Assembly (NCBI GenBank): GCA_048885535.1
Contig: JBHLLO010000001.1
Coordinates: 52,698 to 116,697 of the forward strand
Length of the DNA stretch: 64,000 nt
Direction: 5' to 3'
DNA from: Candidatus Hermodarchaeota archaeon
GTDB lineage: Archaea; Asgardarchaeota; Lokiarchaeia; Sigyniarchaeales; SOKP01
Under the pieces are notes generated by a model. It was not told where the DNA came from, ran no database searches, and saw nothing but the letters and a program-made list of their open reading frames with translations. The translations under genes were made by a program, and so were the position numbers. This document shows positions 1,547 through 35,619 of the stretch, piece by piece. Position 1 is the first letter of the stretch. Each line of letters starts with the position of its first letter.

Positions 1547-3214
1547 CTATTGCTTTAATTTCCCATATATATTTTTCTTTGCATTATATTCTTTTAGAAC
1601 TTTTTTTCCTTCTTTATTGGTTAAGGATAATGAAATTTCACTATTACGGCTTAATGAACCCGTAAAAATTTGTTGATTATTAGCATAAACTATTATATTA
1701 CTGCTTGCATATTCTTGATCTGCTCTTAATACTAATCTATTTCTTAGGATTTCTATGTCTAAGTCTATTTTGTCTTCAATTGTCTTTTTTCCTACAGTAA
1801 ATTCCTCTAATCGCCTATATTTCTTAGATTTTATTGGGCTAATTGGATTTATAACTATATCTTGTCCAAAAGAATAAATTTCATATTCTAATTGTTTAGT
1901 CTTATAATCTCTTACTTCCACAACAGGTCGAGCGAGATCCTTATCTCTAAAACCGTGTGGTACTTTTACGGTCATCTTTATGGCTAAAACCCTGGAGATA
2001 TCTCCATCTTCAATAAATATTATAGTATCTATTATTGAGGGAAGCATACCGAGCTCGATTCTACCAATAAACCTTTGAAGACCATCAATTGCAGAGGATG
2101 AGTGAACTACCCCAACCATTCCTACTCCAGATAATCGAAAGTCGGCATAGACTTGAAAATCGTTGGTAGTTCTTACTTCATCAAATATAGTAAAATCAGG
2201 TCTTACTAAAAGGAGTATATCTGCTGAATTTTCAAGACTTCCTTCTAGCTTAGTGTATTGTGTAATTTCTGGGTCAACTTGCAAATCTCTTACACTCTCA
2301 AGTGTTTTTACTACTTTATTTTGCTGTAAATAGAAGTTTGCTAACGCTGCTGAAAAAGTACTCTTACCAGCACCGGGTGGTCCCGCAACTAAGATTCCCT
2401 CTGCTTTCTCCAAGCGACTACGCAATCTAGAGTCAATAGAATAATCTGACAATTTTAAATTAACAAGTGGACGTACAGCAGTTATTTCTAGATCATTTGA
2501 AAAAGGAGGGCGAGTAATTACAATTCTAAATTCTCTTAATTGAGCTACAAGAGCACCAAACTTTTCAATTTCAATGAAAGAATGAGTATCCTCTCGAGTA
2601 AATTCTACAATCTCCATAGCTATCTCTTCAAGCTGGTTTTTAGATATTGATTCCTCCATTACTTTCTCTAAATACCAGTTACCTGGACTGCCCTTCTTGG
2701 CATATGGTGGTAATTCTTGCTTCAAATGGATACTCATCGTATTTTTATCAAAAAATTTAATTAATGTAAGCGAGGAAGAATCAATTTTTTTTGGTGGTAT
2801 TTTTTCTTTTACAGGTATTACTTCAATTCCTTCGAAAATTCCTACATCTCCCTGTATTTTATCTGAAGTGATTAAAACAGCTTTATTTTCACGAGCAGTT
2901 TCCCTAATTAAGGCATCTAATTCTCCTCCTGGAGCCATCTTAATTTCCTCACGAGTTGGCCTTTTTCCAATTATATGTAATTTAATTTTATTCTTATTAT
3001 GATATTCTCTGAGTTTTTTTAAAACATTTAAACCCAAAAAGCCAATTTCCTTTTGGATGTTTGTTCTATACTCTACTTCAGCCACAACAATATTCGGAAT
3101 AAAAATTTCTGGATATTCACCTAATTCTTCATCTTCAATCAAATCTAAAATAAGCCCGTTAAAAATAACTGAAGTATCACACACAAATTTATCTGGCATA
3201 TTCTTCTTCATCAA
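1547..3214 (-). CDS. PINc/VapC-domain ATPase (PINA-like)
   Basis: N-terminal PIN domain (VCDTSV...ELDALI...TSD), Walker A GPPGAGKST, LLLVRPDFTIFDEVR, GVGMVGVVH. Confidence 0.9.
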   Translation of the reverse strand: MMKKNMPDKFVCDTSVIFNGLILDLIEDEELGEYPEIFIPNIVVAEVEYRTNIQKEIGFLGLNVLKKLREYHNKNKIKLHIIGKRPTREEIKMAPGGELDALIRETARENKAVLITSDKIQGDVGIFEGIEVIPVKEKIPPKKIDSSSLTLIKFFDKNTMSIHLKQELPPYAKKGSPGNWYLEKVMEESISKNQLEEIAMEIVEFTREDTHSFIEIEKFGALVAQLREFRIVITRPPFSNDLEITAVRPLVNLKLSDYSIDSRLRSRLEKAEGILVAGPPGAGKSTFSAALANFYLQQNKVVKTLESVRDLQVDPEITQYTKLEGSLENSADILLLVRPDFTIFDEVRTTNDFQVYADFRLSGVGMVGVVHSSSAIDGLQRFIGRIELGMLPSIIDTIIFIEDGDISRVLAIKMTVKVPHGFRDKDLARPVVEVRDYKTKQLEYEIYSFGQDIVINPISPIKSKKYRRLEEFTVGKKTIEDKIDLDIEILRNRLVLRADQEYASSNIIVYANNQQIFTGSLSRNSEISLSLTNKEGKKVLKEYNAKKNIYGKLKQ

Positions 3215-3806
3215 TATCTATTTTAGTTATTATTTCAAACTTATTTACACTATAATAAATTGGCTTACTTAACCGGTCTACAGTGGCAACTATTAATGCC
3301 TTTCGAGAGCTCATTGCCACGCGAGACATTTTATCTAAGTCTTTTAATTCGATCGGATATCCTTCAAATACGGGATATATTAAATATTTTGCTGCATCTG
3401 TGTTGATATCTGCTCCCCTTTTATAAACTCGAAAATCAATTCCATCACCATATCCAGCTCTAACAATATAACCCCGTTTGCGCAAATCCATATAAATGAT
3501 ATACTTTTGCCACAATCTAGGGTCATACTGTGTGAATTCTATTAATAAATCTTCAAAACTATACATTTGGTTAGTTTTGTTATTGTCTTTCCATAACAAT
3601 AACCTGTTTCGTTCACATAAAAGCAATACTTCAATAGGTTCTAAAATTAGTGATTGTTCACCAGTATCTTTCTCTTCTAAAGTTCCAATATAGGAATTAT
3701 TATAAAATTCATCTATTGCTTTTTCATCAAAAATATATACTTTATCTTCCTTGATAATTGCTTCAAACTGAGCTTTCTCTACCTTTTCATCAGCTTTTTC
3801 TGTCAT
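3189..3806 (-). CDS. endA: tRNA-splicing endonuclease subunit, probably the non-catalytic (beta) subunit
   Basis: YMDLRKRGYIVRAGYGDGIDFRVY and RVAMSSRKALIVATVD match the EndA C-terminal domain; Ala sits at the catalytic His position. Confidence 0.85.
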   Translation of the reverse strand: MTEKADEKVEKAQFEAIIKEDKVYIFDEKAIDEFYNNSYIGTLEEKDTGEQSLILEPIEVLLLCERNRLLLWKDNNKTNQMYSFEDLLIEFTQYDPRLWQKYIIYMDLRKRGYIVRAGYGDGIDFRVYKRGADINTDAAKYLIYPVFEGYPIELKDLDKMSRVAMSSRKALIVATVDRLSKPIYYSVNKFEIITKIDIDEEEYAR

Positions 3807-34992: not shown

Positions 34993-35193
34993 TCCTTAAT
35001 ATATTTCGTTAGTTAAAATGATTTTGATTAGTATTTATATTTGCGTCTTATTTTTTAACTTTTTTCTAAAAAAATAAAACAAAATATTTGCTTTACAATG
35101 AAGGATAAAAAAATTAAAAAGATTAAAAATATTATTTTTAGCAAATAATAATTGGTAAAGAGTTATAATAAGACAATTCGAACTAAAAATTAA

Positions 35194-35372
35194 GGCGGGA
35201 TTACCGAGTCTGGTCAATGGTTGCGTCTAAGAATGGGTCAAGACCGATTATAGGTGCTGGACTTAAGGACTAACTTAGTTATGGAAGTATAGTGAAGTAA
35301 TCCAGTGGCAATAACAGTTAAGTTAAAGCTCTTGCCAAGAGGCCTTCGGGAGTTCAAATCTCCCTCCCGCCA
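35194..35372 (+). tRNA. tRNA-Leu(UAA) with three introns; exons 35194-35217, 35252-35267, 35300-35311, 35340-35372 (85 nt mature)
   Basis: Acceptor GGCGGGA/TCCCGCC + discriminator A; D arm ACCG..AGGT; anticodon arm CTGGA-CTTAAG|A-TCCAG; variable arm GGC-AAAG-GCC; T arm GGGAG-TTCAAAT-CTCCC; each insertion forms a BHB-like junction. Confidence 0.88.
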
Positions 35373-35619
35373 TCTTTTTCAATTTTTATTAATAGGCTTA
35401 TTTAAACTAATATTAAGTTTAACTTCAAATATTAAGGCTCAATTTTAATCCTTTTTAACAGGTAATCATAAACAGATATATTTCTTATATTATACAAGTT
35501 AACATTAAAATTTAGTAGAAAATATATAGTAAAAATAAAAATAAATAAATAATAGCAAGATATTAAAATTATATCATAAGAAATAATTGTGTATTTTAAT
35601 TCACAAAGAGGTTTATAAT

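Follow-up and report, generated by a model that had tools for sequence, protein, structure and literature searches.

A four-exon tRNA-Leu(UAA) gene

Positions 35194 to 35372 on the plus strand of the window (the whole 64,000-nucleotide stretch of DNA analysed here) very probably hold a class II tRNA-Leu(UAA) gene of a Lokiarchaeial (Promethearchaeota, Asgard) archaeon, interrupted by three introns that are predicted to be spliced out. Exon 1 (35194–35217) carries the 5′ strand of the acceptor stem, U8–U9, the 5′ strand of the D-stem and the D-loop as far as A21, and is followed by the 34-nt intron 1 (35218–35251) at position 21/22 of the D-loop. Exon 2 (35252–35267) contributes the 3′ strand of the D-stem, G26, the 5′ strand of the anticodon stem, C32 and U33, the anticodon U34 A35 A36, and G37. 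The 32-nt intron 2 (35268–35299) occupies the canonical position 37/38 and separates exon 2 from exon 3 (35300–35311), a stretch of 12 nt that contains A38, the 3′ strand of the anticodon stem and the start of the variable arm. Intron 3 (28 nt, 35312–35339) interrupts the 4-nt loop of the long variable arm, and exon 4 (35340–35372) completes the molecule with the remaining variable arm, the T-arm, the 3′ strand of the acceptor stem and the discriminator A73. The two acceptor strands are GGCGGGA (7 nt), beginning at 35194, and TCCCGCC, which is followed by the A at 35372; the T-arm in exon 4 (GGGAG TTCAAAT CTCCC) lies just 5′ of the latter strand, and CCA is absent from the encoded 3′ end. The intron and exon coordinates and sequences proposed in an earlier, sequence-only reading of this DNA all match the window.

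The flanks carry candidate transcription signals. The string TTATAATAA at 35163–35171 (+), about 23–31 nt 5′ of the mature 5′ end and recognised by eye, is possibly an archaeal TATA box, in a genome of 30% G+C where A+T strings are common. Directly 3′ of the gene, a run of five T residues (35375–35379, +) is likely to act as a transcription stop; T-runs also follow the orthologous genes.

Cutting the three introns out by their coordinates yielded an 85-nt product that ARAGORN calls as tRNA-Leu(taa), in agreement with the well-formed type II tRNA that the earlier reading had expected. It forms a canonical cloverleaf, in which the acceptor stem has 7 bp, the anticodon and T stems have 5 bp each and the T-loop reads TTCAAAT. 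As expected of class II, there is a variable arm, with a stem of 3 bp and a loop of 4 nt; the anticodon is taa, and an A follows the acceptor stem. Its D-arm parallels those of the Leu(GAG) and Leu(UAG) tRNAs of the same genome. When all eight combinations of retained and removed introns were submitted to ARAGORN, Leu(taa) was returned solely upon full removal; retaining intron 2 alone led to a mis-call as Ile(tat) with a 32-nt intron, and the remaining six combinations returned nothing.

In its unspliced form, the locus escaped the scanners, as the sequence-only reading had anticipated for genes of this kind. ARAGORN made no tRNA call across the entire 64-kb window, and Rfam at its gathering score left the locus unmatched. 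A permissive Rfam E-value search of 35100–35470 gave six weak matches, with tRNA among none of them, and a genome-wide search with RF00005 produced 34 matches, a list to which the locus does not belong.

Orthologues define the boundaries of introns 2 and 3

Orthologues were collected by a DNA search over 60 relatives, and the gene was found in most genomes of the same genus. Of 36 loci, 35 could be parsed; the remaining locus, L032, has a truncated end and was interpreted by eye. Ten same-genus orthologues, each 119–120 nt long, begin with exon 1, intron 1 and exon 2 and run on without interruption into exons 3 and 4, and their contiguous exons 2-3-4 match the predicted spliced product. Because a one-base shift of either intron 2 or intron 3 breaks this match, their boundaries are exact to the base. 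The comparison thus fixes both predicted introns without using the splicing motif. The exons of the orthologues are near-identical, with few base differences that lie mostly in the acceptor stem and the T-loop. Exon 1 is conserved, and the 12-mer of exon 3 is identical and links exons 2 and 4.

The same comparison decides against a gene of two introns, in which a 36-nt D-loop intron would be combined with a 61-nt intron that takes in all of intron 2 and exon 3 together with parts of the anticodon loop and of intron 3. Such a solution was returned by a rule that minimises the number of introns (see the tRNA census below), and ARAGORN accepts its 82-nt product as Leu(taa). However, the 61-nt intron discards conserved exon sequence and is contradicted by the orthologues, which join the 12-nt exon 3 to exons 2 and 4 in precisely the way that the three-intron product does. 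We regard a two-intron gene as next to impossible and retain the three-intron layout.

The predicted junctions carry splicing motifs

A BHB motif consists of a 4-bp helix between two 3-nt bulges. Each junction was scored for its central helix H (out of 4), the intron-internal helix h′ (out of 5) and the exon helix h (out of 5), a pass being H of at least 3 out of 4 plus a flanking helix of at least 4 out of 5. The scores were H4, h′4, h2 for intron 1, H3, h′4, h5 for intron 2 and H4, h′4, h0 for intron 3. All three junctions pass, compared with 2.6% of 20,000 random cuts of 25–40 nt at the same loci. For introns 2 and 3, this test is independent, because their boundaries came from the orthologues.

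The helices and bulges named in the sequence-only reading are present at each junction (arrows mark the predicted cuts). At intron 1, H is GGTC/GATT, with two G·U pairs and the bulges AA↓T and AT↓A, and h′ is GGTT/GACC. In relatives, the 3′ strand of this H reads GATT, GATC, GACT or GACC, each of which pairs with the exon sequence GGTC; a GAAT variant gives one mismatch (G·A) in some of them. Intron 2 has the full hBHBh′ motif, with H formed by CTTA/GAAG, including one A·G mismatch, and an inner helix ACTA/TAGT. At intron 3, H is TGGC/GCCA with the bulges AA↓T and AG↓A, h′ is AACAG/CTCTT with one C·C mismatch, and the outer helix h is missing. The full motif is therefore confined to intron 2, and introns 1 (h 2/5) and 3 (h 0/5) have relaxed motifs of the HBh′ type. 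Folded without constraints, the precursor reaches its energy minimum (−56.7 kcal/mol; z-score −2.22) in a structure other than the BHB fold, one that has the acceptor and T stems and none of the BHBs. Enforcing the three BHBs gives −44.5 kcal/mol, a cost of about 12 kcal/mol.

For intron 1, the register has to be weighed separately. One base wider on each side, it would be a 36-nt intron (23↓24 ... 59↓60), leaving a tRNA of 83 nt whose D-loop has 9 nt and lacks A21. The BHB scorer slightly favours this shifted register (H4, h′5, h2), ARAGORN accepts the 83-nt product as Leu(taa), and a 5-bp helix, TGGTC/GATTA, is compatible with both registers. The two predict different mature D-loops, GGUCAAAGGU in the 85-nt register and GGUCAGGU in the 83-nt register. 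Against the shift stand two intronless paralogues in this genome, Leu(GAG) and Leu(UAG), which have an 11-nt D-loop ending in GGTCAA followed by N-GG, an arrangement that only the 85-nt product reproduces. When the L117 orthologue, from another family of the order, is cut at 21/22, its D-arm reads GCCAAGCCTGGTCAACGGCG, which differs by one base from that of Leu(GAG) in the present genome. The 83-nt product would also lose A21, a near-universal position in tRNAs. As the D-loops of Leu(GAG) and Leu(UAG) and the L117 orthologue agree, we kept intron 1 at 21/22 and consider the wider intron unlikely.

Candidate splicing enzymes are encoded

The genome contains two PF01974 genes. The product of the first (200 aa) aligns end to end with PDB chain 3p1z_B (E 3e-35), with Tyr, His and Lys conserved, and its best matches among solved structures are 3p1z_B and 3ajv_B, which we take to be chains of the heterotetrameric Aeropyrum pernix EndA. 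These two chains, 3ajv_B and 3p1z_B, differ at the aligned His (DAAP and DHAP, respectively), and the first EndA has the His. Its ISKPR stretch aligns with VEKPR of 3p1z_B, which presumably lies in the specificity loop. We assign this protein as the catalytic, alpha-type subunit. Its relatives carry, almost without exception, the names of Promethearchaeota or Promethearchaeia MAGs, apart from a few with other Asgard labels, which places the genome among the Lokiarchaeial Asgard archaea.

The second EndA paralogue (205 aa; 3189–3806, minus strand) matches the Pfam families tRNA_int_endo (68.3 bits) and tRNA_int_endo_N (27.8 bits). It is 34% identical to the catalytic paralogue over 89 residues and has no His at the aligned catalytic position; from this one pairwise alignment, it is probably a structural, non-catalytic beta-type subunit. 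Its best PDB matches are to chains other than the crenarchaeal beta chains, and 3p1z_A is matched at an E-value of only 0.0025. The gene lies in the same window as the tRNA gene, 31 kb upstream of it, and shares 26 nt with the end of a 555-aa ORF (1547–3214, minus strand). RtcB, the ligase for RNA ends with a 2′,3′-cyclic phosphate and a 5′-OH, is encoded as well, with a PF01139 match of 560.9 bits at C2:49044–50351, in a 492-aa open frame. Asgard archaea have been described as having an (alpha-beta)2 EndA with an L1 loop (PMC5829648). The broad-specificity endonuclease that the sequence-only reading called for thus has candidates in a catalytic EndA and a second paralogue.

Introns are common in the tRNA genes of this genome

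The tRNA genes of the genome were surveyed with a script that anchors on the T-arm and acceptor stem, allows BHB-scored insertions and checks the spliced products with ARAGORN. From 73 anchors at 63 T-loops, 32 tRNA genes were resolved; four anchors that the script had solved were dropped upon rejection by ARAGORN. The reversed genome, used as a control, gave 17 anchors, none of which was resolved.

Two rules were applied to choose among solutions. Preferring the fewest introns, the script assigned no intron to 7 genes, one to 15, two to 8, three to 2 and four to none. Preferring the best score, the corresponding numbers were 6, 13, 5, 7 and 1. The fewest-introns rule mis-solves Leu(UAA) and Val(CAC); the best-score rule over-splits Trp(CCA), and its single four-intron gene is a false solution around Lys(UUU). 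Because both rules make known errors, counts are given as ranges: at least one intron is present in 25 of the 32 resolved genes and at least two in 10–13. Other candidates for three introns are Val(CAC), Asn(GUU) and Leu(CAA). In tRNA-Val(CAC) (C8:62093–62259), three BHB introns follow mature nucleotides 28, 44 and 58; it resembles Leu(UAA) in their number, but is a class I tRNA with other intron positions. By this census, a three-intron Leu(UAA) gene is not unusual within such an intron-rich tRNA set.

A number of tRNA genes are found no more than 200 nt from a contig end, for example at C8:40–192 and C2:8–110. Intron-rich tRNA loci may act as assembly break points, and the set of 32 resolved genes is incomplete. 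Other features were seen in passing. U at tRNA position 33 is near-universal; the intronless tRNA-Gln(UUG) (C17:39781–39853, minus strand) has the anticodon loop CCTTGAA and the intronless tRNA-Leu(GAG) (C2:61216–61300, minus strand) the loop CCGAGGC, both with C at this position. ARAGORN also called a tRNA-SeC(tca) at C73:9476–9568 (minus strand; RF00005, 34.6 bits), and the organism probably uses selenocysteine.

The only copy found would serve a frequent codon

The assembly comprises 3.09 Mb in 112 contigs, is 91.6% complete and has about 30% G+C. Codon usage was counted over 1,487 open frames with a minimum length of 250 aa; of their 653,700 codons, 33,165 are TTA, or 50.7 per 1000. TTA makes up 50.2% of the Leu codons and is the fourth most used codon overall, which bears out the earlier statement that UUA is frequent. 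Exons 1, 2 and 4 of the tRNA gene are unique in the assembly, at up to three, two and four mismatches, respectively. The sequence-only reading had named an intronless Leu(UAA) gene elsewhere, combined with silence of this locus, as an observation that would count against it; neither the exon searches nor the ARAGORN calls turned up a second Leu(UAA) gene in the 91.6%-complete assembly. Two other ARAGORN calls of 'Leu(taa)' were rejected as class I tRNAs of 74 and 76 nt, of the Pro-UGG and Ile-UAU type, with a misplaced intron. A second gene in the missing part of the genome is possible.

That missing part gives some room to the view that the locus is a decayed or silent pseudogene filled with junk insertions, a working Leu(UAA) gene being located elsewhere. 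We consider this very improbable. Orthologues have almost the same exon sequences, each of the three insertions shows BHB geometry, and no further copy of exon 1, 2 or 4 is present in the assembly. Moreover, an intron at the site of intron 1 is found in every parsed orthologue, which argues that the lineage has no intronless version, and UUA is the fourth most used codon. A functional three-intron gene remains the reading that we follow.

Intron sets differ among close relatives

Across the orthologues, five insertion sites are occupied in differing combinations: 15/16 and 21/22 in the D-loop, 37/38, the variable-arm loop and the T-loop. The site of intron 1 (21/22) holds an intron of 27–63 nt in every one of the 35 parsed orthologues, two of which (L117 and L118) belong to other families of the order; on this distribution, the intron there is old and common to the order. 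The T-loop intron was found in 10 of the 35, the D-loop 15/16 intron in 6 and the canonical 37/38 intron in 5. A variable-loop intron is likewise present in 5 of 35, a biased count in that four of the five came from a pattern scan targeting that site.

Introns 2 and 3 have a much narrower distribution. Intron 2 is missing in 24 of the 28 parsed same-genus orthologues, in which exons 2 and 3 are contiguous; the 37/38 introns of the remaining four are unrelated to it in sequence. A variable-loop intron is missing in all 28, a set that was found by similarity. Searches of the 41 other genomes of the genus yielded no sequence similar to introns 2 and 3 at E ≤ 0.01, a result that concerns similar sequence and says nothing on whether those sites hold introns. 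Both introns are missing from species that are 95–96% identical over the first 74 nt of the gene. Recent gain is the simplest explanation for introns 2 and 3, since no sampled species of the genus has them; gain rather than loss is the direction that this distribution suggests.

Some matches to the introns were discarded. Identities of 18 nt to intron 3 in two genomes (G030 and G017) lie in A+T-rich intergenic sequence with no tRNA features (E 0.03–0.06 per genome) and were regarded as chance, as were matches to intron 2 in L122 and L123, which fall in coding-like sequence. Within the same genome, no copy of any of the three introns was found (best non-self E 0.05, 0.18 and 0.15 for introns 1, 2 and 3), and transposition from such a copy was rejected on that ground.

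The variable-loop site is also used elsewhere. Insertions of 28–30 nt with other sequences occupy it in at least five archaeal records (L133, L153, L168, L179 and L193), four labelled Promethearchaeota or Thorarchaeota and one 'uncultured archaeon'. They were among the matches listed from a scan with a 19-base pattern, which hit at least 119 stretches; the bacterial records among the matches listed were taken as chance matches to that pattern. The five variable-loop introns have unrelated interiors, and all score H4 with h′ of at least 4. A variable-loop intron is thus, as judged from these putative junctions, not unique to this genome. At the T-loop site, introns of 29–39 nt follow TTCRAA (59/60) in L010, L016, L018, L022, L025, L026, L029, L030, L119 and L168; eight of these ten are alike, of the type ATTGTTAGGG...CCTAACATCGAAA, and look like one inherited intron.

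DNA contigs from metagenomic runs provide a further view of the locus. In three sediment metagenomes (runs X1, X2 and X4), several alleles run from exon 2 through exon 4 without an intron, with loose ends at 35267 and 35340, and others have a D-loop intron, seen as the loose end GCATCGGGAA before 35209. Relatives that differ in their introns therefore occur together in these metagenomes. Contigs of these three runs leave 35269–35333 uncovered. Together with their contiguous alleles, this could be taken to mean that the insertions arose by chimeric joining of sequences within a metagenome bin. Yet a 167-nt contig from another study (run X5) spans 35284–35450 with no gaps and 10 differences, taking in exons 3 and 4 and intron 3 along with the 3′ portion of intron 2 and flanking sequence. 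Two of its differences fall in intron 3 (35316 A>G and 35318 T>C) and keep the pairs of h′, turning an A-U into a G·U and a U·G into a C-G pair (read by eye). Other Promethearchaeota assemblies have insertions at the same variable-loop site, and BHB geometry at three junctions is not expected from chimeric joins. An assembly artefact is therefore exceedingly improbable, and we treat the insertions as introns present in the organism.

Discussion

Our analysis indicates that the three-intron tRNA-Leu(UAA) gene described here is real, with a layout that is already known for Asgard archaea. Its expression can be outlined as follows, with transcription, the actual cuts and the order of splicing inferred from the DNA. 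The single-copy gene would be transcribed as a precursor of about 179 nt containing three protein-spliced introns, each exon–intron junction of which would fold into a BHB or relaxed BHB motif and be cut after the second base of the bulge. A heterotetramer-type endonuclease, composed of the EndA alpha subunit and the second paralogue, would cut at six sites. Once RtcB had ligated the four exons and CCA had been attached, an 85-nt class II tRNA that reads UUA would result.

The sequence-only reading had stated that multi-intron tRNAs are known mainly from Thermoproteales. This no longer holds, as such tRNAs have now been published for Asgard archaea (PMC11291895; bioRxiv 10.64898/2026.10.13.758758). 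In three Atabeyarchaeia and Freyarchaeia genomes, introns were reported in 92–95% of tRNA genes, and several introns per gene in over half (PMC11291895). A census of 90 Asgard genomes described up to five insertions per gene, and 129 intron gains, 71 of them terminal, with an enrichment at BHB boundaries; the route of arrival was not found, according to its text (bioRxiv 10.64898/2026.10.13.758758). Between them, these papers also describe D-arm introns that software overlooks. The Leu(UAA) gene shares with the Atabeyarchaeia and Freyarchaeia tRNAs an Asgard host and short, protein-spliced introns at canonical and non-canonical sites, several per gene. It differs in coming from a Lokiarchaeial genome, outside what these two sources present as their focal families, and the intron burden of this genome (25 of 32 genes with an intron, 10–13 with two or more) looks lower than that reported there. 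The word stem 'Lokiarchae' is missing from the main text of the preprint. In the main texts covered by our search, no paper on this gene in Lokiarchaeia was found; supplementary tables may list the gene or the genus.

In Thermoproteales, whose multi-intron tRNA genes are credited to Sugahara et al. 2008 in the papers named here, tRNA genes have at most three introns (PMC4033280, PMC8450103), at non-canonical sites that include 20/21, 22/23, 45/46 and 59/60 (PMC4090602). Splicing of these multi-intron tRNAs reportedly requires an (alpha-beta)2 EndA that has an additional loop (PMC4033280, PMC4090602, PMC8450103). The likeness to the present gene lies in the number of BHB introns, up to three per gene, and the difference in the phylum. 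Similar introns recur across thermoproteal tRNA genes, which has been read as transposition, whereas introns 1–3 are without similar copies here. The loop of the class II variable arm is missing from the non-canonical sites as listed in PMC4090602.

This is no new kind of system: multi-intron tRNAs in Asgard archaea, the type of endonuclease and repeated intron gains have all been published. What the locus adds is a set of orthologues with and without each intron, which amounts to proof of the intron boundaries that is independent of the splicing motif, and which provides a small, clean case of introns recently gained or lost among Asgard archaea. For this organism, the gene would supply the tRNA needed for its commonest leucine codon, and annotations made with ARAGORN, Rfam or similar tools may miss tRNAs that such genomes actually encode.

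Of most interest is that close relatives carry introns at five sites of this gene in a mosaic pattern, and that the variable loop has been used repeatedly. It is possible, though on present evidence somewhat doubtful, that tRNA-Leu(UAA) in this Lokiarchaeial group is a hot spot of intron turnover. If the variable-loop introns represent independent hits, arrival would be directed to the site, for example by reverse splicing into a pre-formed BHB-like fold followed by DNA copying. Were this true, the gene family would offer a natural series for catching the mechanism of intron arrival, which the 2026 preprint left open.
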